From the IMG/VR virus record IMGVR_UViG_3300042987_002152, positions 1 through 53,059 of that record: DNA of 53,059 nucleotides; one strand, 5' to 3'. Both the position numbers and the translations under genes were made by a program. The notes under the pieces are model-generated. The model worked only from the letters and a program-made list of their open reading frames with translations. It searched no databases and was not told where the DNA came from. Positions 4,668-53,059 of the stretch are shown here, one piece after another. Position 1 is the first letter of the stretch, and each line of letters begins with the position of its first letter. Origin of the DNA: a virus. Its lineage: Duplodnaviria > Caudoviricetes.

Positions 4668-4680
4668 AAGCAACGGCTGC

Positions 4681-17576: not shown

Positions 17577-17601
17577 GCAACTCTCCTCGTCTTCTGAGCC
17601 C

Positions 17602-19351: not shown

Positions 19352-19519
19352 CTGGGCAACCCCTGATTGATACGATCAAATGATGCCCTTGGAGTTGACA
19401 GTTGTAGGTCATTGCATGAGTTAACCAAGCCCAGCCGGCATCTGCCATGCACAGGGTGGCGGGGTTAATTGCCGCTATCCATCCAAGGGCTCTAGCACCC
19501 TGGCTTTCTGTGGCAGAAT
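19323..19519 (-). mobile_element. IS605-derived mini-element, copy C
   Basis: TTAT|ATTCTGCCACAGAAAGCCAGGG...CCCTTGGATGGATAGCGG left end; ends TAGTTCAC at 19323. Confidence 0.6.
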
Positions 19520-19564
19520 ATAACACTTGATCTTATCTGATTATTCAAAGTAAATAATGGTATA

Positions 19565-22900: not shown

Positions 22901-23316
22901 ACAAAATGATGACTGATCAAATCATTTGGCATCCTGTACGTTATAAGTTGCTGTTTGGCAATCTAGCTGATCCACAACTACAAGCAATTTTCAAAATTGT
23001 TAGAATATCAGGCAGCACAATAACTGACAGGGAATTGAAAGCCAGAGTAATACAAGCAGTGGATACTTTTTTTGACATTGCCAATTGGGACTTTGGACAA
23101 AGTTTTTATTTTACAGAATTGGCTGCATATGTGCATCAACAAATGGCCAACCTGCTCAGCAGTGTTGTGATTGTACCCACCAGCAGCAATAGCCAATTTG
23201 GGGACCTTTTTGAAATCAAATGTGAACCTGACCAACTTTTCATCAGTGCTGCCAGAGTTACTGATGTACAAGTTGTGCAAAATTTATACCCTTCTGAATT
23301 GAGAATCAATACATGA
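19957..23316 (+). CDS. baseplate wedge subunit gp6-like
   Basis: ENFLSTATRRES, IRFGDGNFG, ESDDSIRLRAP and QNRMVNGEDY motifs. Confidence 0.9.
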   Translation: MSQTVRQNNLFVAQDWTVIYQAMSQVNFNSYDYDTIRQSLIEYIRTNYPEDFNDWISSSEFVAIIEMLAYLGANLAFRVDLNTRENFLSTATRRESLLRLARFLSYNPRRCLAAQGLLKLTQIKTTQTIYDSNGVNLQNLTVNWNDTGNPDWLEQFILILNAAFQPSNPFGQPVKSGTVGSVATERYDFNNTDTNNLSYKFNSTVNGTSMDMEFVNSDFVAGTSTGSTLSSNGYYMEKIPNIFNSWSLLYRRDGNGNASVNTGFFTVFKQGTLDYSDYNLGTPVPNRVIDVGALNINQNDVWVQTVSDAGLPLLDWTKVPAIVNSNLVYNNVERLTRDIYQVVTRDSNGSDSISIRFGDGNFGNVPVGRVRVYYRTSNNLTYVIQPQDMNAITLSLSYQSELDTLQTLTMQFSLQYPVANSLARESDDSIRLRAPAVYYTQNRMVNGEDYNVFPLQNSQVLKLKSVNRVYSGQSRFLDITDPTSKYSRTQVFSDDGILYKQIVNTSQQIPLINNLNTNQIIESIIQPLLHGGTDIQNVNIALRDFYLSYYTWLPGGGIFWRPSGSSLPNASQGLFYAQSNNTPTGEGTAVYLPNLERGLTTGSLVQFTEGGWASVVNQGSSELGIYATIISKPIGEYLLGSSTQRNVALQIIPPLRVSLSTSEKDDISNALQSKRNFGLRYNIQTLTWQVIDSQDLAINAPFNLANTGNTSKSNVDASWLVQFLYQANSGWQITMRGLHYMFESVREVQFYFLNNHPVVDNVTLTSARDNIRILKYNTGSNNQQLTTDQYWALHNISTSIDGQIDPRIVRVVFWDSNNDNIIDNPLVFEDLVPPNSLVFWKSSVAEGSQIWQPIPGVDYIVTFLADLSTTVPVPSVGNIAYVTNPGVFLECVSINPLSWKDVSTNYKALVGKSHINYCWQHYANSQKRIDPAIMNVIDAYVLTNNYNTALRNWISKSRPTDTQPQPPTPEDLRTLFQEFDSYKMMTDQIIWHPVRYKLLFGNLADPQLQAIFKIVRISGSTITDRELKARVIQAVDTFFDIANWDFGQSFYFTELAAYVHQQMANLLSSVVIVPTSSNSQFGDLFEIKCEPDQLFISAARVTDVQVVQNLYPSELRINT

Positions 23317-26300: not shown

Positions 26301-29300
26301 TGGAACTATAGCAGTTGTGTGGACAAGCAGCAGCAACCAGTACCAGGACATTGGCGCGGGATTTATTTTTGGTTTTTTGATACTGATCAACCCCATCTGG
26401 CACCCTGGGAAATGTTGGGATTCAGTCAACAGCCCATGTGGTGGACACAAGAATATGGTGCAGCACCTTATACAAGTGGCAACCTTCGTATGTGGAGAGA
26501 TCTTGAACAAGGAATCATACTACACGGACCCAGAGCTGGTGTACACACTGTGTGGGCCAGACCAGGGTTGTTGGATAATATTCCTGTAGATACTAGCGGT
26601 AATTTGTTGCCTCCATTTTTGGCTGGAGTAGTCACCAGTCTGCCCACTACAGTTCTGGCAAGTGCGGATTGGAAATTTGGAGATCGTAGCCCATTGGAGA
26701 ATGTTTGGTTAACCCAAGTAACTTGTGATACTTTATGGGCGCAATGGACATATCTTGCCAAACCAGCACAATTCATGGAATATAATTGGGATGGAACAAG
26801 ACAGGAACAAATCCTTGCACAACAACCAGGATCGCAGTGGATCTACACTGACATATTGGACAGAAAAAGCAGCAGTGAATTTTTGGTTCATAGAGAAAAT
26901 CCACAAGATGTTGTCAGTTTACCCAACCCCTTGGACTTGGATTATTATGGTAGTTGTGGCATCCAGCATTGGATTAGTGAATATCTCATAAATGACAGCA
27001 AAGATGTTACTGTGTATTTTGGCAATATAATAAGAGGTATGAATGTAAATCTAGCCTATCGTTTGGGCGGGTTTACTGACAGCCAAAGTACTCGCATTTT
27101 TGTGGAGAGTTTTGGTATCAACAACAATAATAGCCTGTTGATTCCGCAAGAAGATGTGAGTACTGAATTGTTGCGCAGTGCCAGCACAGGTGAATATGTT
27201 TACACTGGTGTAATAGTGGAATTTCAAGGTATTGGTGTGGGTTGGAGAGTGATTGGTTATGACCAACTAAATCCATTTTTCAAAATAGTAGCAAGTGACA
27301 CCAAAGGTCCCAAAAACACTGTTGTGATTGATAATCAGCGAGTTTTTGAATACAGTAGGGGATTGGCACATACACAATTGGTAAGGTATGGTACAGTATT
27401 TGCCACACGACAGGAAGTTTATGATTTCCTCATAAGCTTGGGTAGAGCACAACAGATGGATGGTTGGTTGTTTGATCAATACGACGATGTAGCGGGTAGA
27501 CCTCGTAATTGGAGTTTGAGTGCTAGAGAATTTTTGTTTTGGAGTCAAGGACCTTGGGCAAGTGGCACATACATAGCTCTCAGTCCATTGGCTACATTAG
27601 CCAAATTTGAAAAAGATTATGGCGTAATACAAAATGTGGGCGGATTGGTTAATGGCGCATATAGTATACAAGATCGTAGCGGTGTTGCTATTCAACTACA
27701 AGACGTTGATTTTTTGCGTATTGACAATAAGATCAGTGTCCGGCCACTCAACAGTCAAGGTATTTTTGGATTAAGGTTGTATACTACAACCTTAGAACAT
27801 GCTTTGATAGTGGCTAACAGAACAATTTTCAATGACCTTATGTATGATCCTGTGTTGAACCAAAGACAATATCGTGTGAAATTTTATGGATATCGCACGT
27901 TGGATTGGAATGGAAGAATGAATGCTCCTGGGTATTTGGTCACACAAAGTTTACAGCAGATCAACAACACTGTTAATGTGATCAACAGAATCATACCCAA
28001 TTTTGAAAAAAGTGTAGAAGATTTGCGTAAACTTTTCGAAATAGATTTGGCTACCCCCTATCAGTTGGCAGACAATAATCAAACACTTACTAGCACAATC
28101 ACACAAAGCCTTCCCATCAATTTAAGTGTCATGGCCAAAAATGTAGTAGGTTATACACCTAGATCCTATCTCACACAGTTGTTGACTGATCAAAATATTG
28201 CTTTTCAGTTTTATCAGGGCATGATCAAACAAAAGGGTACTAGACCCAGCATAGACAAATTGTTACGCAATAATCAAATATTAGCCAGTGATCAAAACTT
28301 CGAATATTATGAAGAATGGGCATTTAGGTCAGCGGTTTATGGAAACAATTTGGACAATAGTAGTATAAGCATACTTCTAGACAATACATTAGTCAACAGC
28401 AATCCTCAATTGTTTATGATATCTGGACCTGGCACAAGCGATCTACCCAATGATGATGTATATACTATCTTGACAAATGGCAACAATGTTGTGCAAAAGA
28501 GCAACAAATTGGGTAATTTCAAATTACGTAATTATTATGGTTCAAACAGCAATGACCTACCCACTGCTGGATATGTGTTGTTGGACGAGACAACCTATAC
28601 TGTTGTGTCAGATCAAGACTTGCAGAACTTGTATTCAGAAACTACAAGTAAATGGATCAACAATCAAATAAGCAGGAATATTCAAGCAGGTGACACTGTA
28701 TGGCAGTTGATCAACAGTCAAACCACATGGAATGTTTATAAAATTTGTCAACCCACATGGAGTATTAGTGCAACCACTCCCAGTGATATTGATATATCTA
28801 TCACACAAGTGTCCACAACCAGTGCTCACAATCTTGTGTCTGGGGATCGAGTAATTTTGTATGGTGTTATCAATGCAGGCACAGTAATTGACAATACTTT
28901 TGTAGTAAATGTGATTGATCAACTGACCTTTGAAATCCAATTGACTACATCCAACATTGGTAGTGGAGGCACAGCCCTTGTATATCAAAGTATAAGATTT
29001 GCCAACACACAACAACGGGATGATGCATTGATTGCTGGAGGTTGGCAAACCAAGGACCTTGCTTATGTGGATGGTACCAGCCTGGATCCTTGGAAAGTAT
29101 ATTCATACACGGGTACAAATTGGCGTGTGCTGCGAGAAGAAAACTACAAAGTGGATCCCGAATATGTGGAAGCCAGCTTTTTGTATGACATTGTCACTGG
29201 TGTTACACAAACGCAATGTGTGTTGCTGGATCCAGTCAAAAATAAATTGCCAGGAATTTTTGATCAACAAATTGGTTTTCGCACACCTTATGATCCTGCT

Positions 29301-32300
29301 CAATACACACATGATCCCAGTCAAACAGTGGGTACCAATGCCCTGGATGCTTGGGGTAACGATCAAGTGGGTATGGTTTGGTGGGATCTGAGTAAATTAC
29401 GATTTGTGGATTATGAAATCCATACTGCAAGTTATAGACGACAAAATTGGGGCAAGGTGGCACCAGGAACCAGTGTTGATATTTACGAATGGACCAGAAG
29501 CACTGTGCCTCCGCAAGATTGGCAAGATCTAGTCAAAAGTGGCAAGGATTTGAGTGCCATTGGTACCACACAAATGCCCAGTGGTCAGGCCAAAGATCCT
29601 CAAGGTGCTTATGTGTTGGCGCAGCAGTTGAATAGTTTGAATCAGTTGCAAGATGTATTTTATTTTTGGGTAAAGAATACAACAACTGTTCCTGATGTCA
29701 GTTGGCGTACATTAAGCACCAGTGTGCTGGCAGACATAATACAAAATCCACAAAACACAGGCCAAAGTTGGTGGAGCCCAGCCAGTGCCGATCATGCATT
29801 GTTGGGAAATGTGGGCAATCTGTTGATCAACAATCAGAGTGTTTGGCAATTGAATTGGTTGGCCAATCAACAAACTCCTGTGGTGCACAAAGAGTACCAG
29901 CTTGTTCGACCCATGGACGCTCTCAGCAGTCCCACAAGTCAACTGTGGAATCATTTGAGATACAGTTTGGTAGAATATAATCAGTTCAATGATAGTGTGC
30001 CTTATTTGCGATTGCCTTTGAGTCAAAGATATGGGATTCAAAATCACCCACCACAAACCATTTTTGCAAACACCTTGAGCGCAAGACAGGCATTTGTAGA
30101 ACAAGTGAACACATTGCTAGCCAACAGCTCACAACCCAGTGTGAGTGACCCCAGCAGAGTGGGTTGGCAGCCGTTTTTTGATCTTCAAGAGCCCATACCA
30201 CCACAAAAGATTGTGCTGGCCAGTTGTGTGCGTGGCACTACAGAAAATCTTGATGCGTGGTATACCAATAGCAATGAGGGTATAGGTGCCCAATTAATAG
30301 GCAAGAATACACAGTTGTTGATTGTGGATCAACTGTATGTTCAGGTAGGTGATAGATTGTTGATCAAAAATCAAAAAGAGCCACAGCAGAACGGAATTTA
30401 TACAGTAATTCATCCAGGAACTCTAGTGTATGATGGGGTCTGGCCTACTGGAAATGGCAGAGTGAGTTTCACGGTGGGATCAACAACTTATTTGCCCAGT
30501 CAAGGTCAATACATTTTGAAGCAGAACACATTATATGTTATCACTGATATTGGCTCAGCTACCACAGAATGGCAGAGACAGGAAATTGCTGGCAATGTGC
30601 TCAACGACCCCAAACTCACCAATTGGGTTTTGGAACGAGCAAGTGATTTTGATCATTCCAGCAAACAGATCATAAACACTGAGGTATCAGTGTTATCTGG
30701 CAGTCAGACACACATATACTCTTGCCAACCATCAGGTGTATATGCACAAGATATTCAATTGATTGATGGTGGGCAAGGTTACAACGTGAATGACCTTATT
30801 ACCATTACCCAGGTAACCAGTTATACGCCTGTAAAAATCCTTGTTACTAGTGTTTCCAGCACTGCTATAACGGGGTTTGAAATACTGGACAGAGGAAATA
30901 TTCGAACTGTGAGTGCTGGGCGAATATGTAATACTACCTGGTATCCAGATGCATACAATAGTGGTATAAATGCTAGATTTAGTGTTCTCTGGAGTGGAAA
31001 CAAAGGTTTTGCAGTTGGTACATCAGTCATTAGTTTTCTACCTAAACCAGCGCTTACAACCTGGGATCAACAGGTGGAAAATTTAGCACAATTGCTGGAA
31101 CTCAGAAACAAAGTAGTTCCTGGAACTAGGGTCTTGGTTGCATATACCAATCTAGAAGGCGTGATCAGTGCAGGCAATGATACACAAAACAGATGGACCA
31201 TTTGGTTATGGCCCAATGTGTCAGCGCAAGATTTTGTTTTGATAAGAGTAGAAAGTTATGTGGGTAGTTTGGTGTGGGGATTGCAAGATTGGTATGCTGC
31301 TGGGTATAGTTCACAAACCATTCCTGATTTGGTTTTTGAAACTCTGCAAGATAGAGATCAATACAAGAACTTCTCCAAATTAGATATTGTTAGAGTCAAC
31401 AATACAGGATCTGGTCTCTGGAGCTTGTATTTGTATGTGGCAGTAGACTTCACACCTTGGCTGCTTGTGGGTCAACAAGATGGTACTGTGGTGCTGGAAG
31501 ACACATTGTATGATTACAGCAAATATGGCATGGGATTTGATGGCAGCGGATTCAACCAAGACTATCAAGGTTGGGAATACGACAGTCGTCAAGAATTAGA
31601 TCATATCATACAAGGATTGTGGCCCACAGCGGAAGGCACACAAGGATTATTGTTGATAGACAATCAGACAAATGAAGCCAACACATTGTGGTTTACCATG
31701 CTCAATAGAGTATTTAATGAACAAACTTTTGTGGATTGGGCATTCAAAACCAGTCACATTAATTTACAGGGATTTAGTACTCAGCTGACAGCTAGCCCGT
31801 TTTTCCAGCCAAGTACGTTGGACAACATACTGCAATACGTAAATGAAGTCAAACCCTATCATGTGAAAATTCGGCAATTGGTGGAATGGAAAAAAGCACA
31901 AGACAATTATGATAGTTCAAGCACAGACTTTGACAAACCACCCTATGTTGATCCTGTACAAGGCACAAGAATCTTGAATGTGCAGAGTGCCATTGATCAA
32001 GTTATTTTGCAAAACAATGCAGCTTACAAGAATTGGTACAGCAATTATGTGACCAATCCGCAAGTGGTGAGAACAATCAAAACTCGGTTAGTGTTTGATA
32101 GAGTAAGTTGTCAAGCTGCGGAATGGTACAATCAAGAAATTGATCCAGTAGAGCTGTATGCCTTTTTAAATCAGCCCACTGATCAATTCATCACTAGTTT
32201 GCGTGAATGGCTTGCAGTATTGTATGATACACAAATTATTGTGGGTTACAAGGTACAAGTGAAAATATTCAGTGAGATTATCATCCGTAGAAACAATCAA

Positions 32301-35300
32301 ACGAGTGTTGATCCATTGGAAAATTGGGATTTTATAGCTGCAGGGTTGGATTTCACTCAAATTTATGGATTGGATCCAGTACAAGCATTATCTAGAACTT
32401 TGCAAGAAGCACAAAGTATCTACACAGCACAAGATCTTTTTGTGTTGCTGAATAACAGTGCAAATTATTCTACTGGCTATCAAGCAAAAGTCAGGATAGA
32501 CGAGTGGATAACCACCAACACATATGTCAAACAAAATAACACAAGTATTTTGTTGGACCAATGGTTGTTGATAAGCTATGAGGCAGATAATGGAGCTGTG
32601 GATCGAGTGATTGCCTATTACAATCCTCAGGGAACACAATTACCTACCAACAGTCCATTGTTGATAAGTGGCTGTCAAGGTCAACTGTTGGGGGTTGATG
32701 GCCAAGGTTTCAACACCCAAGATACTTGGGACAAAACTGATTGGGACAATGTGCGAGGTTGGGACTATACTGAACAAAGTTTGGATCTTGTGGATCAAAA
32801 CATATCAGACGGGCTTAGTCCCAGATATTGGATTTTTGTAGGGGATGGTACAACTACTACATTTAGTCTGCCCGTGGCACCACAAAATCCCAACCAACTA
32901 ACCGTGTGGGTGAATGGCATAATCATTGCACAGTCAGGCAATTGGCATGTGCCCAATTGGGTCAGTCAAATTTATGTGCAGAATGGTGGTATCAATTATA
33001 GTATGAGTGATATTGTAAGCATTCAGGGAGGTACCTATACTAGGCCAGCACTGTTTGAGGTAACTGGTGTCTCAGTGTTGGGCACTATCACCAATTTGCA
33101 GATTGTGGATCCTGGAGAATATACAGTTGTGCCGCAAAATGGTGCTGTTCAGGTGAACGGAGGCACAGGTGTAAATGCTGCTGTGAGTGTGTTATGGGGA
33201 GGCACCAGCCTGGTGTTTGCCAGCGCTCCCAGCATCCCCTTACGTCCACGACCCAATGTATGGGTAGTAGAAAAAGGCAGCACATTCAATCCACAAGTAG
33301 AAAGCATGTTAAATATGACTTTTGATGGTGCTGGTTTGAACAGCCCACATCTGCAACCGGGACATCCAGAAGAACTGAATAAATCCTGGAACAGAGACAG
33401 TTTGATCATGGACGTTTACAATCAAGCTCAACCTGGTTATGGTAATTTGATTACCAAAGTTTACACATCAGATGGTTTGATCGACCAATTTGACATAGGA
33501 CAACCCATTGTCAGCAACAATCAATTGTTTGTTTATGTGAATGGTCAGCCACAAATTTATGGTGTATCAAATGATTATGTGATTGCCTATGATACTATGC
33601 GAGTAGTATTTTTAGTGCCTCCTCCAGCAGGAAGATTGAGTATTGTGAGTGTGGGGTTTGGTGGTGCAAGTCAAGGATTGGGCTATTGGAGTATTACCAA
33701 TGCTGGTACCAACTACAAAATTGGTGATAAAATCCAGTTACTGGGGGGCACACCTTATGACCCTTCAGTTACAGCAACCATGATTGTTAGTGCACTTAAG
33801 GCAGTGGGCACACAAATTATACAAGGCGGTCAAGATTATCAAATTGGAGATCTGCTGGAACTCAAATATGGCACCAGTAATGGAATTATGATTGTGCAAG
33901 TGAATGCTGTCACCAATAGTTTGGCAGTCAAAGGTATCATCAGTGGTGTGACTGTGATCAATGCAGGGTTTTATTACAGCGTCCCAGCCAGCAATTTTTG
34001 GTACACATCAGGCACAGGCACTGGGGCTAATATCAATCCCCTTTGGGGAGTTGCTGACATATATGCTGATCCCACTGTGGGATTTTTGGGCATTTATCAG
34101 AGCATTCCTGCTCAAGCCACCCAAGCAAGTGTTACTCCACCAGGTGGCACAGGATTTACATTACAATGGGGGCCCAGTAACATAAGGCAGCAAATTACCA
34201 AAACCTATAATGGCAGCAATGCCAGCTTGAAATTTAATTTGCCTATTGTCAATGCACAATTCTTGTTATTGATCAATGGTGCAGCTAGTGTGGGTTATAC
34301 TTTGGATCCCACTGATCCTACAAATGTGCTTGTTAGTGTTCCATTGGTTGTGGGAGACACTCTTGCGGGTATAGTGTTCAATAGCACACTGTACAGTTTT
34401 ATCAACACACAGACTATTGTTGTACCCAATCCTGCTGTGTTGAATTATACAATTACGTTGCCGCCGTTCTTGAGCGTGATGCAAAGTCAAAACGCTCTAG
34501 TATTTATCAATGGATACAAGCTCCGGCCGCCATATTTTTGGCAAGGCACTGGTGATGGAACAACCACAATTTTTGATGTGGGAGTAGCCACAGGTGCTAG
34601 TGTTTTGAATGCATGGGTCAATATCACTAGTATTACTAGTACTGCCATCATTGCAGGACCAGGCGCAAATCAAGTCACATTTGCCTCTGCACCGCCCCCA
34701 GGCAGCAAATTATTTGTTCAAGTGCAGTTGAATAATGAGTTTGTGATTCAATCTACTAATTTGACTTTGATTAACCCTCCCTCTTCAGGTGATATTATAA
34801 CCGTTCAAACATTCAGTGAAGACAGTATCACCAGTTGGCGTAGCGACCGATTCCCAGGACATATGCCTGCTGTGTATACATTGAGCACGCTGGCCAGCAG
34901 TTATGGTAGTGTGCAAGTGTTTGTGAATGGGTTGTTGGTTGACCAAAATTGGGATTACACAGTGCTGTTTCAAAACAATCAAACCTTAATTCAGTTTGCT
35001 GACAATGTCACACACCTGCCCGCAGACACTGTGGAAATATATTATCCTACCCAGCCTCCAGCAGTGCCCAGTGTGGCATTTAGAATGTTCACAAACATTT
35101 ATTCAGATACTCAATATCTGAGGCTGAGTGACCAGCACACAACCAGATTGGCTGAGAATTTCTTTCACACCAATACCACAATGTGGGTGGAAGATGGATC
35201 AGTATTGCCGGATGCAACCAATAGTAACCCAGGTGTCATCTGGATTGGAAGTGAACGTATTTTGTATGCAAATAAAGTGGCTGATCCCAGTGTGCAATTG

Positions 35301-35813
35301 CCTCAGCGAACTAGATTGGAGCAAATCACTCGAGGATCCATAGCTACAAGTGGGGGAATTCCTACAAGATTTTTGAGTGAATTTCACAATGGTGATAATC
35401 AAAGCATATACTTTGCCACCCAACTACCGGTAGTCAATTTATTTGTGTTTGTGGATGGTATTCCACAAACTTTGAATTCCAATTACCAAATTGTACAGGA
35501 CCCTCCAGGTGTTGTGTCAGGAACATACATTAAATTTTCTAACGTCAGAAATGTGGATGGTGAAATTTTGTATGCAGAGGATGGTACAAGCATGCCACCC
35601 CCAGTGGGTAATAAAAACATTGTATTTGTAAGTAATTACAACAATTTCCTGCCTGCGAATTTGGTTTATGCCCAGGGCAGTGTTGTGAGAGATGGAAGTG
35701 CCAGGCAAAATATACCGGCAGGGTATATTTGGACTCCTGGAACCAGCCTGCAATATAGTGCAGAACCACAAACTCCTTTCTTGGTTCAACAACCTGGCAC
35801 ACGAATAGTTTAG
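23313..35813 (+). CDS. giant (4166 aa) baseplate/virion structural protein
   Basis: Uninterrupted ORF coupled to gp6; KQKGT and EVKPYHVKIR motifs of gp7-position proteins; beta-rich C-terminal repeats. Confidence 0.8.
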   Translation: MTQKPRRISEFLPEVLQTDLLQKFFAATGDQLFQPSNVEYLSAFVGEKPPYYKPTSEQYVAEINKNRRDYQLSPTAVSRDIISNEVTHTLFYDDLINKLRFQGGLVDDHNRLFENEYYSWGAPLNWDKFVNYSNYVWLPQGPTTIELLSPTNAQVDVISNISYAYVGNYSYPDPQDPELLVIKSATVNNPLVFVNGMKIKFLVDADVQSRSISWIVEGVGTSIRLVSDNILTYLAWENPVDYDTTPWDSNSLQDSPTYVVMGRGSANANPWSLQNRWFHKRVLELTQTALPDSVSSSAQRPILEFDYDLKLFNFGTRHRGFITLLDTQSQFLDQINGQWVTTIDNSNGNRTYLQIDQLTLDDDQIILFTNLRNPERNNKLYRVTNVRNSSSISGAQTKLGQVVLELLPNQIDPLGDPQPGDAVTIMQGGTWQNTCWWYNPVTRSWQQAQNRTLPTNVDPTSSAYKSALNSSPLFDLFNTRQEYLANPAVYPANNFAGCTIFEYARSSQGVIDPVLGFIPVVENAGARNFVFNNTLCSQQWIYKNNNALETVPGLKFYQHQSDHNVSYGNNWFVSSQPSRQYVVNEFVSKLDQQTFVIDQAPALQESAHDPQLLTNAVGGAMPITVSVGTKTLVLNQDYTVQGNAVFLFEPLLADQFVRIRSFAVPNNQATNGYFEIPSNLAANPNNQAILNISFGNLLPHLQTIIDNQQNLSVFADVSVTTNYDNLAQDQSLGTVIIQSRAPMLKLMGMNAIEQTTVFDTTSSVLDPITAIQWAQAEYLRFYNKFVNTLMYLYNNQGNLKDQTAGGWLDQALAIINVGKTRSSSWANSGFDIQAGSYCSQKSQTPTWIPASATRLGLTPAWEPLVFFDTSQPNMPLSMRTHNGALVVLKDYNNENLGTILNNQQQTNIPDALSNPVAQAWLLFEKLLYDNLPASYKNKERQLPVDPRTIFSGKYRQTNYSRTDQLKIQSAQWQSWLTLNQVEAFKNTTFDVTDPFTWNYSSCVDKQQQPVPGHWRGIYFWFFDTDQPHLAPWEMLGFSQQPMWWTQEYGAAPYTSGNLRMWRDLEQGIILHGPRAGVHTVWARPGLLDNIPVDTSGNLLPPFLAGVVTSLPTTVLASADWKFGDRSPLENVWLTQVTCDTLWAQWTYLAKPAQFMEYNWDGTRQEQILAQQPGSQWIYTDILDRKSSSEFLVHRENPQDVVSLPNPLDLDYYGSCGIQHWISEYLINDSKDVTVYFGNIIRGMNVNLAYRLGGFTDSQSTRIFVESFGINNNNSLLIPQEDVSTELLRSASTGEYVYTGVIVEFQGIGVGWRVIGYDQLNPFFKIVASDTKGPKNTVVIDNQRVFEYSRGLAHTQLVRYGTVFATRQEVYDFLISLGRAQQMDGWLFDQYDDVAGRPRNWSLSAREFLFWSQGPWASGTYIALSPLATLAKFEKDYGVIQNVGGLVNGAYSIQDRSGVAIQLQDVDFLRIDNKISVRPLNSQGIFGLRLYTTTLEHALIVANRTIFNDLMYDPVLNQRQYRVKFYGYRTLDWNGRMNAPGYLVTQSLQQINNTVNVINRIIPNFEKSVEDLRKLFEIDLATPYQLADNNQTLTSTITQSLPINLSVMAKNVVGYTPRSYLTQLLTDQNIAFQFYQGMIKQKGTRPSIDKLLRNNQILASDQNFEYYEEWAFRSAVYGNNLDNSSISILLDNTLVNSNPQLFMISGPGTSDLPNDDVYTILTNGNNVVQKSNKLGNFKLRNYYGSNSNDLPTAGYVLLDETTYTVVSDQDLQNLYSETTSKWINNQISRNIQAGDTVWQLINSQTTWNVYKICQPTWSISATTPSDIDISITQVSTTSAHNLVSGDRVILYGVINAGTVIDNTFVVNVIDQLTFEIQLTTSNIGSGGTALVYQSIRFANTQQRDDALIAGGWQTKDLAYVDGTSLDPWKVYSYTGTNWRVLREENYKVDPEYVEASFLYDIVTGVTQTQCVLLDPVKNKLPGIFDQQIGFRTPYDPAQYTHDPSQTVGTNALDAWGNDQVGMVWWDLSKLRFVDYEIHTASYRRQNWGKVAPGTSVDIYEWTRSTVPPQDWQDLVKSGKDLSAIGTTQMPSGQAKDPQGAYVLAQQLNSLNQLQDVFYFWVKNTTTVPDVSWRTLSTSVLADIIQNPQNTGQSWWSPASADHALLGNVGNLLINNQSVWQLNWLANQQTPVVHKEYQLVRPMDALSSPTSQLWNHLRYSLVEYNQFNDSVPYLRLPLSQRYGIQNHPPQTIFANTLSARQAFVEQVNTLLANSSQPSVSDPSRVGWQPFFDLQEPIPPQKIVLASCVRGTTENLDAWYTNSNEGIGAQLIGKNTQLLIVDQLYVQVGDRLLIKNQKEPQQNGIYTVIHPGTLVYDGVWPTGNGRVSFTVGSTTYLPSQGQYILKQNTLYVITDIGSATTEWQRQEIAGNVLNDPKLTNWVLERASDFDHSSKQIINTEVSVLSGSQTHIYSCQPSGVYAQDIQLIDGGQGYNVNDLITITQVTSYTPVKILVTSVSSTAITGFEILDRGNIRTVSAGRICNTTWYPDAYNSGINARFSVLWSGNKGFAVGTSVISFLPKPALTTWDQQVENLAQLLELRNKVVPGTRVLVAYTNLEGVISAGNDTQNRWTIWLWPNVSAQDFVLIRVESYVGSLVWGLQDWYAAGYSSQTIPDLVFETLQDRDQYKNFSKLDIVRVNNTGSGLWSLYLYVAVDFTPWLLVGQQDGTVVLEDTLYDYSKYGMGFDGSGFNQDYQGWEYDSRQELDHIIQGLWPTAEGTQGLLLIDNQTNEANTLWFTMLNRVFNEQTFVDWAFKTSHINLQGFSTQLTASPFFQPSTLDNILQYVNEVKPYHVKIRQLVEWKKAQDNYDSSSTDFDKPPYVDPVQGTRILNVQSAIDQVILQNNAAYKNWYSNYVTNPQVVRTIKTRLVFDRVSCQAAEWYNQEIDPVELYAFLNQPTDQFITSLREWLAVLYDTQIIVGYKVQVKIFSEIIIRRNNQTSVDPLENWDFIAAGLDFTQIYGLDPVQALSRTLQEAQSIYTAQDLFVLLNNSANYSTGYQAKVRIDEWITTNTYVKQNNTSILLDQWLLISYEADNGAVDRVIAYYNPQGTQLPTNSPLLISGCQGQLLGVDGQGFNTQDTWDKTDWDNVRGWDYTEQSLDLVDQNISDGLSPRYWIFVGDGTTTTFSLPVAPQNPNQLTVWVNGIIIAQSGNWHVPNWVSQIYVQNGGINYSMSDIVSIQGGTYTRPALFEVTGVSVLGTITNLQIVDPGEYTVVPQNGAVQVNGGTGVNAAVSVLWGGTSLVFASAPSIPLRPRPNVWVVEKGSTFNPQVESMLNMTFDGAGLNSPHLQPGHPEELNKSWNRDSLIMDVYNQAQPGYGNLITKVYTSDGLIDQFDIGQPIVSNNQLFVYVNGQPQIYGVSNDYVIAYDTMRVVFLVPPPAGRLSIVSVGFGGASQGLGYWSITNAGTNYKIGDKIQLLGGTPYDPSVTATMIVSALKAVGTQIIQGGQDYQIGDLLELKYGTSNGIMIVQVNAVTNSLAVKGIISGVTVINAGFYYSVPASNFWYTSGTGTGANINPLWGVADIYADPTVGFLGIYQSIPAQATQASVTPPGGTGFTLQWGPSNIRQQITKTYNGSNASLKFNLPIVNAQFLLLINGAASVGYTLDPTDPTNVLVSVPLVVGDTLAGIVFNSTLYSFINTQTIVVPNPAVLNYTITLPPFLSVMQSQNALVFINGYKLRPPYFWQGTGDGTTTIFDVGVATGASVLNAWVNITSITSTAIIAGPGANQVTFASAPPPGSKLFVQVQLNNEFVIQSTNLTLINPPSSGDIITVQTFSEDSITSWRSDRFPGHMPAVYTLSTLASSYGSVQVFVNGLLVDQNWDYTVLFQNNQTLIQFADNVTHLPADTVEIYYPTQPPAVPSVAFRMFTNIYSDTQYLRLSDQHTTRLAENFFHTNTTMWVEDGSVLPDATNSNPGVIWIGSERILYANKVADPSVQLPQRTRLEQITRGSIATSGGIPTRFLSEFHNGDNQSIYFATQLPVVNLFVFVDGIPQTLNSNYQIVQDPPGVVSGTYIKFSNVRNVDGEILYAEDGTSMPPPVGNKNIVFVSNYNNFLPANLVYAQGSVVRDGSARQNIPAGYIWTPGTSLQYSAEPQTPFLVQQPGTRIV

Positions 35814-44508: not shown

Positions 44509-45720
44509 TTAACCTGTGACAAATTTTATGGGTTGTGCATGGTTTTGTAGAATATCAATTTCCACAGCACTCAAACATCCTCCCTTGCTACTGCCTGTGT
44601 CAGTGCAAATAACTCTACCGCCCTGAGATCCATGTTTGAACACAACTTGGCATTTGTCGTGATCCAACCAATCATGACCAACCACCACGTTATGACCATG
44701 AGGAACCAGATCCACCCACTTCCAAGTGCGCAAAGGATATCCAGAACTGTTGGTTTGGTTATTGACTACTTCACCAAAATATGCTAATTCACCCATCACA
44801 CCAGGCAGCCTATGGCAATGTTTGTGCCACATATCGGGGTTTGCTGCTCCATGTACAAACATCCAATTGTTGATCACCCAATGCTGGGTGCTGGAATTTT
44901 CCAAAGTTTGCCAAGCACTGTGAAACCTGGATTTACTTGAGCAATTCAAAGCTTGAATTTCTCTGATCGTGCATAGATTGGCCTCACTGAGAGTACCTCT
45001 GTAATTCTTGCCCCAATCTCTTTGAATCCATTTGCTGATTTTGCGCTCATGGTTGCCCCAAATCATGTGAGCCTGACCCTGTTGAACAGATTGGTAAGCT
45101 AATTTTACACATTTGAGGTTTTGTGCACCATAGTCCACAACATCTCCCAACCAAACAACAAACTGTTGGTTCTGTTGAGCATGAGATAACGCCTGCTGCA
45201 TGGCAGCATAATTGCCATGTACATCACCCACAGCCAAAATTTTGTAGGGAGGTTTGGGCTTTGAAAACAATTGAAGAACTTCCTTGCCAGGCACAACCAC
45301 ACAATGGGCCAGCTTGCTCAATTGACTTTTGATTTGATTTTGAACATGAAATTGTGGACAATTGGAATCACATGTGTTTACATAGTACAAACAAACTCCA
45401 TGTCTGTAAGCAAGATCAGCGTATTCGATTACTTCAGCCAATCTAAAACTGCCTTTGACCACTGCTGGTTGGCCATTGTTCAAGAGAAGCTGAGCACTGT
45501 TCCACACATGGTCATATATTTGTTTGTCTCGTAGGTGATTGTCTGTTCGCCCTGTCAGCAGATACCTCTGCTGGGTAATATCCAGCAGACAACCAGCCTC
45601 ACCAGTGGTGTTGACAAAATGTGCCTGTTCACATGTACATCTGCTGCTTGCATTCAAAATCAAGCTATGTGGAAAAATATTCATCATGTCTAATAATAGC
45701 ACACTAGAACAAACAGTCAA
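44509..45720 (-). CDS. calcineurin-like metallophosphoesterase (Pnkp/PrpE-like) with divergent N-terminal domain
   Basis: GDVHG, GDVVDYG, GNHE, HG, GH and DTG motifs. Confidence 0.85.
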   Translation of the reverse strand: MTVCSSVLLLDMMNIFPHSLILNASSRCTCEQAHFVNTTGEAGCLLDITQQRYLLTGRTDNHLRDKQIYDHVWNSAQLLLNNGQPAVVKGSFRLAEVIEYADLAYRHGVCLYYVNTCDSNCPQFHVQNQIKSQLSKLAHCVVVPGKEVLQLFSKPKPPYKILAVGDVHGNYAAMQQALSHAQQNQQFVVWLGDVVDYGAQNLKCVKLAYQSVQQGQAHMIWGNHERKISKWIQRDWGKNYRGTLSEANLCTIREIQALNCSSKSRFHSAWQTLENSSTQHWVINNWMFVHGAANPDMWHKHCHRLPGVMGELAYFGEVVNNQTNSSGYPLRTWKWVDLVPHGHNVVVGHDWLDHDKCQVVFKHGSQGGRVICTDTGSSKGGCLSAVEIDILQNHAQPIKFVTG

Positions 45721-45739
45721 TCATGCTGTCTTCCTATGA

Positions 45740-45943
45740 CTACCAACCTTGTAGCAGATCCCATACACTGTGACACACATATGACAACATGCCCAATTGA
45801 GTGACAAAACTGATGCCAAAAAAGGCACTACTGCTCCAAATACATCCACTCCAGGACAGGACCCAATCGGCCACCATAGCACTAATCAAAAACATAGCAA
45901 AAACAGTTACACAAATTGTAGCATATTTGAGCATGCTTTTCAT
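45740..45943 (-). CDS. small membrane protein
   Basis: Two hydrophobic segments; TAAATA at 45977-45972. Confidence 0.6.
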   Translation of the reverse strand: MKSMLKYATICVTVFAMFLISAMVADWVLSWSGCIWSSSAFFGISFVTQLGMLSYVCHSVWDLLQGW

Positions 45944-45978
45944 TAACTATCCTTTTATCCTGTGTGTGGTTTATTTAT

Positions 45979-46084
45979 CTCCCGTTGCGGAAAACCAGGT
46001 GCCTTTGCGCACTGGATGGATAGCGGCAATTAGTTTTTCGCTGCGCAAGCCTGTTGTGGATAGAGCCCAACAGATACTTTAACT
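45979..46084 (+). mobile_element. IS605 left-end-derived remnant, copy D
   Basis: TTAT|CTCCCGTTGCGGAAAACCAGGTGC...GCACTGGATGGATAGCGGCAATTA; no right end visible before copy E. Confidence 0.6.
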
Positions 46085-46190
46085 GTGAACTACTATTGGT
46101 CTAAACACCAACAGCCTCCTGCTTGATCGTAGTGGCTGACATCAGACCCCAATGAGTGAGAATATCTGTGACCACATCCACAGGCGCAGG
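46065..46190 (-). ncRNA. putative TnpB omega-RNA (reRNA) scaffold plus flanking guide
   Basis: GCCTGTGGA (46185-46177), CGATCAAGCAGG (46129-46118), right-end hairpin and TTCAC; the guide would be the flank 46084-46065. Confidence 0.5.
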
Positions 46191-46323
46191 GGGCAGTTTC
46201 TGCTGTGGAGTTTGATAGGTCCTATATTTGTATTAAATAATATGGCAACTAGATTATATCAATATTTATACCACTCGCTATCCATCCACTGGCTTTCAAG
46301 CCAGTGGTCTTCCGCTCGAAATA
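46085..46323 (-). mobile_element. non-autonomous IS605/IS1341 element with both ends, copy E
   Basis: TTAT target, left-end hairpin, TATAAATA (46270-46263), tnpB remnant YKYRTYQTPQQ (46232-46200), right end CAGGAGG-CTGTTGGT-GTTTAG-ACCAATAG-TAGTTCAC. Confidence 0.75.
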
Positions 46324-46334
46324 ATAAATATGCT

Positions 46335-46721
46335 ATGCACTGGTTGATTGCCTTTTTTCTGCTGATTGCTTGGAGTAGACCTGTTCAATTGGAACACACT
46401 GAAACTCCTAGTTATCATTCACTATCTGCCTTGGCTACGTGTCTTAGTGTCATAGAGGTACAAATATCATTCACAGCCCATCGCATAGAACTTGCTCCAC
46501 ACATTATTGTTTGGGCAAACACCTTGGACCTTTATAATAATATGATCAAAGAGATCTATAGTGAAAGTGCACAACATGTGATTGTAGAAGAATATCAATC
46601 TATGAAAAAAGATTTGATAATAGCTCTCATGCATTATGACCAGGATCAGGTGCTGGAACTTGTGCAAAATTTTGTTTTGATTAGAGAACAATGCATATAC
46701 CTGGTCAGCTACTCCTCTTGA
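46335..46721 (+). CDS. hypothetical protein with N-terminal hydrophobic signal
   Basis: Start MHWLIAFFLLIAW 4 nt after TAAATA; the upstream part of the track ORF is element E. Confidence 0.6.
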   Translation: MHWLIAFFLLIAWSRPVQLEHTETPSYHSLSALATCLSVIEVQISFTAHRIELAPHIIVWANTLDLYNNMIKEIYSESAQHVIVEEYQSMKKDLIIALMHYDQDQVLELVQNFVLIREQCIYLVSYSS

Positions 46722-46860
46722 ACAACCACATGCACTAGATGCCCAACAAAGCAGATAATTGGCAACTTGTGCATGGGAGGATAAACATGATCAAGAACAG
46801 CCATCTGTGAGATTAGGCAGGACTCCTCTGTGAGAAATATGTAGGCACATAACTACTGGG

Positions 46861-47949
46861 TTAGCTCCCAAAACCCATGCGAAATTTTTGGACAGGTAGT
46901 TCTTGAGGATTCTGAAACAGTTGTGCCAAGCTCCAAGAATTTTGCGCCCGCCAATCACGGTCTGGCAAACCTGCTGCTAGTGCTGCCTGTTCAGCTTCTG
47001 CACTGGTGAGTTCTCGAAACTCAACGCTGGCAAAACACCGACCAGGACGCAGTAGAGCAGCATCAATCTTGCTTACCTGAGTGATGTTGCTTGTGAAAAT
47101 CATTTTTTTGTTGATGATTTTGATCAAGCCATCGCTCACATTCAAAAACTTGCTCATCATTTCGTTGTCACCATCTTCCCTGGGAGCCAAAAACACATCT
47201 GCATCCTCCACAATCAAGGCATTATGTTCCTCATCAGTGAGATAGTTGATGAAGAACTCATCATCCTTGAGGATGCGATCATCGTAAGTAACCATTGCAC
47301 TGATGTTATGACTCACCAGCATGTGCCTGAGGAAGCTGGTTTTGCCAGTACCTGGGGGACCATACAACACCAACACACTGGCACTGGATGAATAAAAGTC
47401 ATTGACAAACTGATCCACTCCTTGTTTGAACCATGGATAAAATTCATTGTGCAACTTCTGGCCCAGACCTGTCACGTGCATACTTGCACAATCATTACCA
47501 CGGCCGGTTTTGTAATACCAGCTGATTTTGACCAGTTTCTTACCGTGCAGGCGTTCTTGTAGATTTTCTCTTAGGCGAGTTACTTGCTCTTCTGCACCGT
47601 AAATTTCAAGTACAAAAGTAACAATATTATTGCGGCTGTAGCGATATCCGTTGTCATAACACATCACCAACAGGTTGTCTTGTGCATCAGTCACATAGAA
47701 CTCACGCCTATGAAAAAAATTAGCCTTGATATTAGTGTAGAACTGCTTAAACGTTTCTTTGACTGCATGGAACATTTGCAGTTCAGTTTCTTTGCAGTCA
47801 ATCTCAAACCGTGCCACAATAACTTCCGGAACCTTGCATTTGTTCCAAAATTCATTGATCACGCTACAACTGAGAGCATCACTGTGCCCTTCAGTGTAGA
47901 AAAAGCTTTCCAGCATGGGAGGACGATACATTCTATTACCCTTTAACAT
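46861..47949 (-). CDS. AAA+ ATPase
   Basis: GPPGTGKT, IVEDAD and DAALLRPGR. Confidence 0.9.
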   Translation of the reverse strand: MLKGNRMYRPPMLESFFYTEGHSDALSCSVINEFWNKCKVPEVIVARFEIDCKETELQMFHAVKETFKQFYTNIKANFFHRREFYVTDAQDNLLVMCYDNGYRYSRNNIVTFVLEIYGAEEQVTRLRENLQERLHGKKLVKISWYYKTGRGNDCASMHVTGLGQKLHNEFYPWFKQGVDQFVNDFYSSSASVLVLYGPPGTGKTSFLRHMLVSHNISAMVTYDDRILKDDEFFINYLTDEEHNALIVEDADVFLAPREDGDNEMMSKFLNVSDGLIKIINKKMIFTSNITQVSKIDAALLRPGRCFASVEFRELTSAEAEQAALAAGLPDRDWRAQNSWSLAQLFQNPQELPVQKFRMGFGS

Positions 47950-47994: not shown

Positions 47995-48339
47995 TTAGGG
48001 TTCATGGTTCTCCTGATCATATTCCCAAGCTGTGAGACTGACCACAGTCATGTAATTAGTCCATGCTTCTCTTATGCCAGGAAATCTTTTTTGGAGTTCA
48101 TCATGTTTGTAAGCTGCGTGCAGCTGATGCAAGATTGTTTGGAAGTCAGTTTCACTTATTGTGATGTCATACAACTGCTCTGTTTTCACCATTGGTATTG
48201 TGATGTCATACAACTGCTCTGTTTTCACCATTGGTGGTAAGGTAGATTCGTGCAAGCTTACCAGTTGTTGATAGCCTTTTACACTTGCGTTGAACTCCTG
48301 TGTAAACCAATCCAACTCTCGAGAATAAATTTGTGCCAT
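47995..48339 (-). CDS. hypothetical protein with 13-aa duplication
   Basis: 114-aa ORF in a tightly packed minus-strand run. Confidence 0.65.
   Translation of the reverse strand: MAQIYSRELDWFTQEFNASVKGYQQLVSLHESTLPPMVKTEQLYDITIPMVKTEQLYDITISETDFQTILHQLHAAYKHDELQKRFPGIREAWTNYMTVVSLTAWEYDQENHEP
48157..48235 (+). repeat. exact 39-bp tandem duplication
   Basis: tattgtgatgtcatacaactgctctgttttcaccattgg x2 (PMVKTEQLYDITI x2). Confidence 0.95.
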
Positions 48340-51299: not shown

Positions 51300-52841
51300 T
51301 TATTTTCTTGCCTTCTTGCCTCTACCCAATGCCTGCACATCTGGCACCCTGGGATCCCGCTTGTCACGTGCGTTTTTGCTAACGATCCTACCCACCTGTT
51401 TGTCCCGTATGGCCTTCTCAGCCTGATGTGGGGTCTTGAAACTGTCACCAGTCAGCTTGTCTACAATTTGGCCATCTTTGGTCATTTCAAATCTTTCATC
51501 ACCAGCCAATTCCTTGAGCAGTTTGCCCATTTCAACCAAATTTCTGAATATGGGTTTGCCTGAAGGGTTTTCCACCTTGAGTCGGGCCTTGACAAGCACA
51601 TTATCGGGGTTGTCTTTTTCATGTACAATAATGGTGGGCGTGGCCAGTGCAGTGGCTGATGTCCGGATGCTGGCTGCCAGATCCAGTTGATCCAGTTTCT
51701 CTTCCAAATTGTCAAAGTTGATTTGATCATAGCCTGCAATGGTGGGTGCATTCTTGAGTGCAATTAAAACTACATCCTTGTCTGAACCTCTTGCAAAATG
51801 TTGTATGCCTCTGGCCAAATCCGTCACCCAGTGAGCTTCTGTGGTGTTGTTGGATGTCTTCAATTTACGATTTAGTTCATCTTTGACCCACAAATATGCT
51901 TTGCTGGCAGCTTGTACAGGTTGTCCACTGTCCCATTCCTTTTGGATGCTGGCAGGCAGTGTGACGCCAAACAGGGCATGCATGAATTCTTTGACAGTTG
52001 CAAAGCTTGTGCCATATCTCTGGCCAAACTGTGCAACATCTGCTGCCTTGAGGCTGATATTCAGTTTCACAGGCTTGCCGTCAATTTTCACTCTCACATC
52101 CACTTTGGTGCCTGTTTGTTCACTCAAACCGTCACTTGTGATTTCCACATGATTGGCTTGGGGATCATTCAGAATGTGGTCAATCTGTTCTTGCATCTGT
52201 TTGTTCTTGTTTGCAAACAGTTGGGCGCTTTTTAATGCACCAATATAGCCTGACCTATCTTCACTCATTAGTGCATCCATGGTGATCTTGTCCAGTTTGA
52301 TCTCCAGTTTGATTTTGTTGCCCTGCTCAGTGGTGTTATATGTGGCTCTTGCAATAGGAGCCTTCTTGCCCTGTTGAATATATTCCAGTTTGCCGCCTTG
52401 CCTGTTGTTCTTGATGTTGTTGAGAATCTTAACAATATCTTGTTCTGTGACTAATTTGTTGGTCACAAAGCGAGCTGTAATAGCCACCCCCAATAAACCT
52501 TCTGCCAAATTACCCACATTAAATCCCTTGACTCCTGCGCCTCCTCCGAATTCCTTGGTTTTTTTGAGGTTACCAATTGCCATGCTTTGCCCATCCAGGG
52601 TTCGCACTATGATCTTGGAAAATTTCTCCCCAGCCAACAGTCTGTCAAATGTATCTTTCAGTTGATCATGACTGTGAGGATCTATCAAAACCTGTTCGCC
52701 TGTGCGTTCCACTGTGAAGGGGAGTTGTTCCTTGACCATGTTCAGAAATTTCTGTATTCGCCAAGGACGCCGTATGAGGGCACTAGCATCCAAACCAGAT
52801 TCTGTGATGGATGGATGGGGTCTAAGTTGGTAGATTCGCAT
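51300..52841 (-). CDS. probable virion-packaged protein with PD-(D/E)xK-like nuclease motif
   Basis: Leader MRIYQLRPHPSITE; GNLAEG...KVDV...ISLK; TAAATA at 52866-52861. Confidence 0.6.
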   Translation of the reverse strand: MRIYQLRPHPSITESGLDASALIRRPWRIQKFLNMVKEQLPFTVERTGEQVLIDPHSHDQLKDTFDRLLAGEKFSKIIVRTLDGQSMAIGNLKKTKEFGGGAGVKGFNVGNLAEGLLGVAITARFVTNKLVTEQDIVKILNNIKNNRQGGKLEYIQQGKKAPIARATYNTTEQGNKIKLEIKLDKITMDALMSEDRSGYIGALKSAQLFANKNKQMQEQIDHILNDPQANHVEITSDGLSEQTGTKVDVRVKIDGKPVKLNISLKAADVAQFGQRYGTSFATVKEFMHALFGVTLPASIQKEWDSGQPVQAASKAYLWVKDELNRKLKTSNNTTEAHWVTDLARGIQHFARGSDKDVVLIALKNAPTIAGYDQINFDNLEEKLDQLDLAASIRTSATALATPTIIVHEKDNPDNVLVKARLKVENPSGKPIFRNLVEMGKLLKELAGDERFEMTKDGQIVDKLTGDSFKTPHQAEKAIRDKQVGRIVSKNARDKRDPRVPDVQALGRGKKARK

Positions 52842-52867
52842 GTGATCATCTCTTTTGGCATATTTAT

Positions 52868-52946
52868 TATTTCGAGAGGAAGTCCACTGGCTTTCAAGCC
52901 AGTGAATGGATAGCAAGTGGTATAAATATTGATATAATCTAGTTGC
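52868..52946 (+). mobile_element. IS605 left-end copy F with internal late promoter
   Basis: 52858-52946 matches the reverse complement of 46245-46333 at 83/89 nt; TATAAATA at 52921-52928. Confidence 0.7.
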
Positions 52947-53059
52947 GTCATAGTTATTGAGATCATATATTTCCATAACTGATCTTATATTTTTTTAACA
53001 GAGGGACTATATGCTCCTCTGTTGCGGATATTGATAGCGCCATTCAAGTCAGCATCTAT

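Follow-up and report, generated by a model that had tools for sequence, protein, structure and literature searches.

A gene-less IS200/IS605-type miniature in a putative late promoter of a T4-related freshwater phage

The stretch of DNA analysed here, referred to below as the window, is the 53,059-nucleotide (nt) IMG/VR virus record IMGVR_UViG_3300042987_002152, which by the record's own estimate represents about 12% of the genome. Within this 53 kb a 239-nt repeat, element E, lies directly upstream of a gene coding for a 128-amino-acid (aa) protein and abuts the motif ATAAATA. E is very probably a non-autonomous, PATE-like derivative of an IS200/IS605-family insertion sequence (IS) that has inserted into a late promoter in a clade of T4-related freshwater phages. 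Further, when the window is considered together with related phages, copies of the same family that are flanked by TTAT show a real excess in late-promoter motifs. The comparison set comprised the related IMG/VR phage contigs G001-G005, together with the locus L031 (in G001) and the locus L080. A scan of 35 open reading frames (ORFs) of the window recovered several T4-type genes, namely those for a gp5-like baseplate lysozyme, gp25, gp38-type adhesins, RNA ligase 1 and Acb1, and the hosts of the element family are best explained as a clade of large T4-related freshwater phages of lytic type.

The identity of the element emerges from its longer relatives. An all-against-all comparison of G002-G005 revealed a repeat of about 1.3 kb that starts with the reverse complement of the core shared by the repeats of the window, with copies at G003:23789-25074, G004:19284-20573 and G005:3488-4696 and two more cut by contig ends. 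Its 397-aa ORF matches OrfB_IS605 (E = 8e-21), Cas12f1-like_TNB (2.9e-20) and HTH_OrfB_IS605 (2.1e-15), domain matches which identify the predicted protein as TnpB. The 1286-nt copies carry TnpB only, and the 1749-nt copy in G005 (2948-4696) encodes, in the order tnpA-tnpB, a Y1_Tnp protein (126.5 bits against a cut-off of 23) in addition to TnpB. Because the repeat encodes TnpB, and in G005 also a Y1 transposase, the core is the left end of an insertion sequence belonging to the IS200/IS605 family. Among 50,697 phage records, TnpB homologues were found in 407, each at most 37% identical to the present TnpB. In the full copies, tnpB is preceded by TATAAATA and tnpA by CATAAATA, both of which are T4-type late-promoter motifs. 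Two further TnpB genes and a second TnpA were also noted in G003.

The minus strand of E corresponds to the strand bearing tnpB in the full copies. Positions 121-210 of E align with positions 1169-1258 of a 1286-nt full copy at 84-89% identity, and its positions 30-48 match left-end positions 29-47 of the full copy. These alignments support E as a gene-less miniature, likely derived from the insertion sequence by internal deletion, which would have removed nearly all of tnpB and spared the hairpin-bearing left end, the promoter motif of tnpB, roughly the final 100 nt of that gene and the right end (Table 1). By analogy with PATEs that have been described as specifying guide RNAs for TnpB in trans (passages of PMC10055086), the retained tnpB 3' region and right end of E may specify a guide RNA scaffold. 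The window holds three tnpB fragments, one each inside E and two further complete miniatures, A and h3. A classical miniature inverted-repeat transposable element was rejected as an identification, on account of the absence of terminal inverted repeats and of a target-site duplication: the termini of E, A and h3 are unlike each other at the two ends, and no flank is repeated.

Table 1. Element E, its surroundings and the other copies of the family in the window (positions are those of the window; the strand of an element is that corresponding to tnpB in full copies)
Feature	Position	Strand	Basis or remark
Element E, gene-less miniature, 239 nt	46085-46323	-	ends fixed by alignment, right terminus and left-end rule
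T just outside the right terminus of E	46084	+	would be octamer base 1 after precise excision
Flanking target ATAAATA	46324-46330	+	bases 1-4 complement the TTAT adjoining the left end
128-aa gene, putatively served by the motif	46335-46721	+	ATG in frame with the ORF
Left-end subterminal hairpin (IP_L equivalent), 8-bp stem, 6-nt loop	46286-46307	-	compensatory changes across copies
16 nt from hairpin foot to left boundary	46308-46323	-	measured on the element strand
AAGA at the hairpin foot, position of the IS608 guide sequence	46308-46311	-	by IS608 rules (passages of PMC3201880)
Internal TATAAATA, remnant of the motif 5 nt ahead of the full-copy tnpB ATG	46263-46270	-	
tnpB 3' remnant, aa 361-395 of 397	46110-46214	-	E = 4.8e-9, 60% identity
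Right end of E: degenerate hairpin (46093-46114), then terminus GTAGTTCAC (46085-46093)	46085-46114	-	
Copy h4, left end, opposite orientation to E	45979-46036	+	adjoins TTAT 45975-45978
Copy F, left-end fragment, 91-93% identical to E	52868-52958	+	adjoins minus-strand ATAAATA 52861-52867
Copy A, complete 195-nt miniature, tnpB aa 2-27 remnant	1272-1466	+	TTAT 1268-1271; not a late-promoter site
Copy h3, complete 197-nt miniature, tnpB aa 272-303 remnant	19323-19519	-	adjoins TTAT; not a late-promoter site
Copy h1, left end, remainder runs toward the window start	90-148	-	adjoins TTAC (plus-strand GTAA 149-152)

The limits of E could be set by three lines of evidence. First, the right terminus GTAGTTCAC is common to E and four full-length copies, and the sequences diverge immediately beyond it. 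Second, 19 of 24 left ends of the family begin directly after TTAT or TTAC, a rule that sets the left end of E between 46323 and 46324. Third, a local alignment of the window with a second long copy, G004:25593-25832, spans 46084-46330 only; this copy, the only other long two-ended one that adjoins ATAAATA, likewise has a T outside its right terminus. As the three agree, the boundaries of E at 46085 and 46323 are confirmed as exact. A preliminary description of this DNA had pointed out that joining the flanks of E would create a consensus late promoter, and the coordinates bear this out: 46084 joined to 46324 yields the octamer TATAAATA, 4 nt before the ATG at 46335, while the octamer now present at 46323-46330, with the A at 46323, reads AATAAATA and is separated from the same ATG by 46331-46334. 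The same description took the rebuilt octamer as independent support for the boundaries. The boundaries themselves stand, on the grounds just given, but the rebuilt octamer contributes little to them, because a single base, the T, had to match, which has a chance probability of about 0.3.

On the strand of tnpB, TTAC stands before nine of the 24 left ends examined, TTAT before ten and another tetranucleotide before five, and the sequence beyond this tetranucleotide is unrelated between copies. The left-end hairpin, along with an outer 5-bp helix that encloses both this hairpin and the guide position (e.g., window 100-152 and 19471-19523), keeps its pairing through compensatory changes across 21 copies, with 88.8% of the cells paired. 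None of 500 shuffles reached the observed value on four of five pairing measures; on the fifth, the number of pairs changed on both sides, 116 of the 500 did so. The passages describing IS608 in PMC3201880 make no mention of the outer helix. Hairpin-only matches of the left-end model R1 fall at right ends (e.g., G003:25043-25066), where hairpins are also visible in the full copies, and hence the two ends carry similar hairpins. Canonical copies have AAAG at the hairpin foot, pairing with TTAC in most of them. By visual inspection, the three copies whose guides end in A (E, A and h4) are all at TTAT, and seven copies with a guide ending in G are also at TTAT.

A covariance model of the left end, built from 19 copies, recovered six strong left ends in the window (E <= 6e-14) and a weak seventh match, a degenerate one at 4677-4745 (9.1 bits, E = 1.6) that adjoins a perfect TATAAATA at 4660-4667. 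In the related contigs G002, G003, G004 and G005 the model detected 10, 4, 3 and 1 full-length copies, respectively, and no left end in the 57 kb of G001. A search of the window for the right terminus with at most one mismatch returned 14 matches, against 10.4 expected, of which only those of E and h3 lie in the expected context. Two arrangements in G002 were also observed: two left ends placed head to head about 50 nt apart (55473-55640), and a left end that starts directly after a right terminus at 8498, which would be a tandem insertion at a retained target.

Given the compensatory changes in its two helices and its constant orientation relative to the downstream gene, the conserved core might alternatively be viewed as a structured regulatory RNA, a riboswitch-like leader of late genes. 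This is barely credible, as the core lies upstream of the promoter motif, and hence outside the late transcript, and is itself the left end of a TnpA/TnpB element, in which such hairpins act as DNA. A search of the core against Rfam found no family at the gathering thresholds, and with E-value thresholds only a 5.8S match (E = 0.33). With the recognition that the core forms one end, the left, of a TnpB element, the structured RNA interpretation was dropped.

Elements of the IS200/IS605 family are described as inserting 3' of a tetranucleotide without duplicating it and as excising precisely (passages of PMC3201880 and PMC10055086). Under this scheme, TnpA supplied in trans would paste a single-stranded circle 3' of TTAY (Y being C or T), with no target duplication. 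In a late promoter, such an insertion would be possible only on the template strand and between octamer bases 1 and 2. Since TTAT is the complement of the ATAA in the motif, E would have entered between bases 1 and 2 of a TATAAATA-type promoter. Insertion into the template strand would also fix the orientation, with E facing away from the 128-aa gene and that gene retaining seven of its eight promoter bases. Precise excision would restore TATAAATA.

Relatives lacking the element at this locus allow the prediction to be compared with empty sites. In both G001 and L080 the gene order is the same as in the window, i.e., the 67-aa gene, an intergenic region and the orthologue of the 128-aa gene, without an element in between; the orthologues were recovered at L031:3599-3979 (BLASTP E = 2e-4) and in L080 (tblastn E = 3.7e-14). 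The intergenic region of G001, of about 60 nt, contains two divergent perfect octamers 10 nt apart, with the plus-strand TATAAATA 5 nt before the second ATG. That of L080, of 58 nt, has GTAAATAA on one strand and, on the other, GATAAATA 4 nt before the ATG, the motifs again lying about 10 nt apart. In the window, by comparison, 345 nt (45979-46323) separate the two motifs, a stretch made up of a left end facing left, the segment 46037-46084 and E facing right. The first octamer position is G, rather than T, in two of the four motifs of the relatives, and T at the orthologous position of G001. Because these empty sites keep a promoter motif at the same place, the promoter predates the insertion, and the junction on the right-hand side agrees with the prediction. 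The comparison with insertion-free relatives that the preliminary description had called for therefore sustains the right junction, where TATAAATA or GATAAATA stands 4-5 nt before the ATG, while the left flank could not be aligned. It was also noted by eye that the reverse complement of 46037-46084, the segment between the two facing elements, resembles the first tnpB codons kept in A and E.

The nature of the motif itself rests on comparison with phage T4, whose late promoters, recognized through gp55, are described as consisting of an octamer near -10, either TATAAATA itself or a sequence differing from it at one base, without a -35 element (passages of PMC2988020). The site of E conforms to this description, with the single-base octamer variant AATAAATA near a gene start, and from this we infer that the present phage uses the motif as a late promoter of the gp55 type. 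According to the same source passages, the natural variant met most often in T4 has A instead of T at -13, which is the case at 9 of 50 late-promoter sites. Since T4 itself has A there at these sites, an insertion that alters only the -13 base should be mild in effect. The preliminary description had proposed that such promoters are near-neutral landing sites and that excision could tune promoter strength; both proposals would draw their sole support from the frequency of the -13 variant in T4, by analogy with which they may hold. Ten ATAAATA motifs occur in the window, eight of them intergenic according to the ORF list used here; three adjoin left ends and three lie inside elements. Similarly, three of the four perfect TATAAATA octamers in the window lie inside elements, so the element family accounts for most of the perfect late-promoter octamers there.

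The spacing of these motifs drew our attention as well. In three phages only 4-5 nt separate the motif from the start codon of the 128-aa gene, with no Shine-Dalgarno sequence (window 46323-46337; L031:3592-3607; L080 in flipped orientation, 2976-2991), and in G003 (about 23855-23868) it stands 5 nt before the tnpB ATG, again with no Shine-Dalgarno sequence. This arrangement suggests that leaderless late mRNAs might be made from these motifs.

E is not the only copy at such a site. As had been claimed earlier for two further copies designated D and F, which were said to abut motifs serving genes that point outward, ATAAATA is present next to both: the copy at 45979 (h4), probably the earlier D, has its TTAT within the minus-strand ATAAATA 45972-45978, about 29 nt before the ATG at 45943 of the 67-aa gene (45740-45943), and the ATAAATA adjoining F lies about 20 nt before the ATG at 52841 of a 513-aa gene (51300-52841). 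Across the family, six of the ten TTAT-flanked copies lie within TATTTAT (ATAAATA on the other strand), each with an ORF that starts no more than about 35 nt further on; the claim that the TTAT target sits inside late promoters thus holds for these. A comparison with all intergenic TTAT sites had been set beforehand as a check. In the five contigs 21 of 280 such sites lie in TATTTAT (binomial P = 2.9e-5), and with E and F counted once the enrichment is still apparent (5/9, P = 2.3e-4); the insertions are hence not randomly placed. This test used crude greedy ORF calls and masked the element bodies. Beyond TATTTAT the flanks differ among copies, the E/F pair excepted. The TTAC-flanked copies show no extended upstream context, and none of the nine is at a promoter motif. 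Two additional cases came from a later scan, a truncated left end at ATAAATA and a copy, present in four contigs, at a non-promoter ATAA site.

With respect to the cause of this excess, it more likely reflects, for the most part, the survival of insertions at a tolerant position than active targeting, given that the change at -13 is the commonest natural variant in T4. It is conceivable, at rather long odds, that the enrichment is instead mechanistic, whereby opened late promoters, or late transcription coupled to replication, would expose the template-strand TTAT in the single-stranded form that this type of transposition requires, or TnpB with a guide RNA would cut and convert empty promoter alleles of co-infecting phages in the manner of a homing nuclease. 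Consistent with such a mechanism, six of the ten TTAT-flanked copies have the full 7-mer while TTAC-flanked copies lack any extended consensus, and, across the five contigs, elements occupy about six of the 21 intergenic TATTTAT sites. Additionally, tnpA and tnpB carry late-promoter motifs and so would be made when late promoters open; E keeps the guide-RNA-scaffold region downstream of such a motif; and both cleavage of the donor joint by TnpB and guide-RNA-bearing PATEs have been described (passages of PMC10055086). However, selection after random insertion at TTAY explains the same counts, and promoter motifs are absent from four of the ten TTAT sites and from every one of the nine TTAC sites.

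The remaining copies of the window point to a probable second consequence of their presence, namely recombination. Repeat searches related 46196-46333 to 1267-1387 (80% identity) and 46236-46333 to 52858-52958 (91-93%), and the shorter core was also found at 100-154, 19471-19523 and 45973-46027; no right end could be defined for the copies at 45979, 52868 and 148. E and F form inverted repeats 6.5 kb apart, F repeating the last 100 nt or so of E together with 10 flanking bases. The 513-aa gene, whose G001 counterpart (80% aa identity) directly follows the orthologue of the 128-aa gene, is found in the window on the opposite strand, where it comes after RNA ligase 1 and is placed behind F. Hence, this gene looks as if it was displaced by a rearrangement through element copies, which would also serve as recombination substrates.

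These same observations bring up the PeSL units of T4-type phages, described as sigma-70 early promoters combined with terminator stem-loops and lacking a transposase (passages of PMC2839356 and PMC4122927). They are comparable in being short intergenic repeats with promoters and stem-loops that mark gene shuffling, and the E/F pair and the 513-aa gene behave in this manner. One might thus propose that the present repeats are PeSL-type regulatory cassettes spread only by homologous recombination between intergenic regions, a proposal to which the 91-93% identity of the E/F inverted repeats, including the 10 promoter-flank bases, and the relocation of the 513-aa gene relative to G001 lend themselves. 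It is nevertheless very improbable: the repeats are the two ends of TnpA/TnpB elements, with sharp termini and a conserved flanking tetranucleotide, and what is conserved in them is not the sigma-70 early promoters and terminators that define PeSLs. Within E, only weak sigma-70-like matches occur (four against 1.7 expected). A PeSL cassette as the origin of the repeats, with ATAAATA as part of the repeat, was accordingly rejected on the strength of the transposon ends and recombination between copies kept as a side effect; it probably also occurs and does not explain their origin. A candidate for a genuine cassette of this kind was observed elsewhere in the window, in a 34-nt repeat of 85% identity (16766-16799 and 17582-17615) whose minus strand presents a sigma-70-like -10 box, a leader and a ribosome-binding site before two adjacent genes; from these features it is, at the level of prediction, an early-promoter cassette of the PeSL kind.

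Several searches extended the survey. A scan of IMG/VR with a pattern for the conserved core returned 25 stretches, of which about 15 are homologous, and a wider scan with a 15-base left-end word returned 53 stretches, of which 15 bear the left-end signature and were mostly known already. A DNA search of phage records with window positions 45000-47500 yielded no match, and a protein-based locus search with the 128-aa protein gave 11 candidate stretches, none of which was confirmed. Among public sequencing runs, the stretch is present in 20 rows from nine studies; four of the 24 listed runs (X2, X8, X11 and X14), all freshwater or lake metagenomes, were examined at the level of contigs. In these, depth over 46098-46211 is about 25 times that of the flanks, and over the left end about eight times, a pile-up that fits many copies in those communities and is not to be read as a copy number. 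No contig of the four runs bridges an empty site or the inversion, the contigs breaking inside the repeat, which makes them uninformative on absence.

The interpretation of E as a miniature inserted into a late promoter has to be weighed against a number of points that speak in the opposite direction. No TnpA and no intact TnpB are encoded in the window, i.e., in about 12% of the genome, such that the mobilizing enzyme is unseen in E's genome. The right-end hairpin of E is degenerate and its left-end hairpin lacks the bulge of canonical copies; E may no longer be mobile. The designation "late" derives from the identity of the motif with the T4 consensus, no search for gp55 having been made, and the enrichment rests on five to seven independent events and on crude ORF-based gene calls. 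E and F, which share 10 flank bases, may not be independent events, being probably one event followed by rearrangement. Furthermore, the empty alleles come from distant relatives, with 28-32% identity in the downstream protein and 48-54% in the 67-aa neighbour, no near-identical empty allele having been found among the relatives or in the contigs of the four public runs; and the left flank of the empty alleles does not align with 46037-46084. Given this segment and the copy at 45979, for which no right end could be recognized, it may be that the promoter did not originally border on the T at 46084.

Accordingly, one could argue that E is a real IS derivative and the rebuilt TATAAATA a coincidence, with later insertion or recombination having reshaped 45979-46084. 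Such a coincidence would accommodate the failure of 46037-46084 to match anything in the empty alleles, the absence of a recognizable right end in the copy at 45979, and the G at octamer position 1 in two of the four motifs of the relatives, together with the chance of a single-base match. On the other side stand the T outside the right terminus of G004:25593-25832 and the T at this position in G001, and we regard the coincidence as unlikely. Insertion of E into a late promoter remains the interpretation that we strongly favour.

In comparative terms, the closest described relative is IS608 of Helicobacter pylori, in which, according to passages of PMC3201880, the left end lies directly 3' of TTAC, AAAG is found at the hairpin foot and similar hairpins occur at both ends. 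The phage family resembles it in the lack of terminal inverted repeats and target duplication, in the subterminal hairpins at both ends, in the combination of TTAC and AAAG in canonical copies and in the tnpA-tnpB order of the G005 copy. It differs, as far as that account extends, in several respects: 16 nt rather than 19 separate target and hairpin; the right terminus lies 8 nt past the hairpin and reads TCAC, as against 10 nt and TCAA; TTAT is used as often as TTAC; and an extra outer helix surrounds the left-end hairpin. Additionally, the host is a lytic-type T4-related phage, late-promoter motifs precede tnpA and tnpB, and TnpB is no more than 37% identical to any in the 50,697 phage records.

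The TnpB-only 1286-nt copies recall IS1341-type elements (as described in passages of PMC13565253), whereas E, A and h3, gene-less, with both IS ends and 195-239 nt in length, recall PATEs. Unlike the PATEs known from the passages available, which reside in bacterial and archaeal chromosomes, these occupy phage genomes, with densities of six left ends per 53 kb and 10 per 61.7 kb, and six of the ten TTAT-flanked copies are in promoter motifs. IS200/IS605 elements have previously been reported from virulent T4-related phages, namely ISCaje1-4 of the Campylobacter phages CP220 and CPt10 (passages of PMC2853527). Like the present elements, these are mostly TnpB-only, one having both TnpA and TnpB; compared by description only, that source's passages report no miniatures, no late-promoter association and no late-promoter-driven transposase. 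More generally, in the abstracts and passages of the literature surveyed, supplements excluded, we found no report of late-promoter motifs before tnpA or tnpB, of such a density of miniatures in phages or of an excess at late promoters. Hence, to the extent of this literature, IS200/IS605 elements in T4-related phages and miniatures in cells are known already, and E represents a new family member in an unusual niche.

A further parallel is offered by Seg and Mob, the free-standing, intergenic homing endonucleases of T4, which are described as passing from one co-infecting genome to another once a targeted break has been made (passages of PMC13565253). TnpB with a guide RNA could play the same part, the difference being that between a protein-only nuclease and an RNA-guided one; a homing role in the present phages is, by this analogy, conjecture. 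Taken to its full extent, the conjecture would have late promoters switch on tnpA and tnpB, the TTAT of opened promoters serve as the preferred single-stranded landing site, and TnpB with RNAs from the miniature copies home into the empty alleles of co-infecting relatives, with late transcription nearly untouched. We consider this chain of events improbable as a whole.

The window and its relatives contain additional features of note. Intein or LAGLIDADG signatures were observed in the DNA polymerase B, IMP dehydrogenase and helicase of relatives (G003:21567-23816, G003:48704-50596 and G004:1868-4438), and the genomes of these relatives, as predicted from such signatures, hold several kinds of selfish element. 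In the window, a 4166-aa ORF (23313-35813) without a confident Pfam domain follows the gp25 and gp6-like baseplate genes, and a perfect 39-nt tandem duplication (48157-48234), in frame as 13 codons, lies inside the ORF 47995-48339.

The general view is that virulent phages have few insertion sequences and that these come at a cost. We find a TnpA/TnpB family and its gene-less offspring every 5-10 kb in several contigs of large freshwater phages related to T4, and the promoter-sited copies lie at the one late-promoter position where T4 tolerates variation. This provides a concrete picture of how a transposon may persist in a densely packed viral genome, and singles out the repeats at which the 513-aa ORF has apparently been relocated. 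With its TTAY motifs, putative guide-scaffold remnants and empty alleles, the family also offers natural material for the study of RNA-guided TnpB homing between phages; were the homing interpretation true, these elements would spread in the manner of Seg and Mob of T4.

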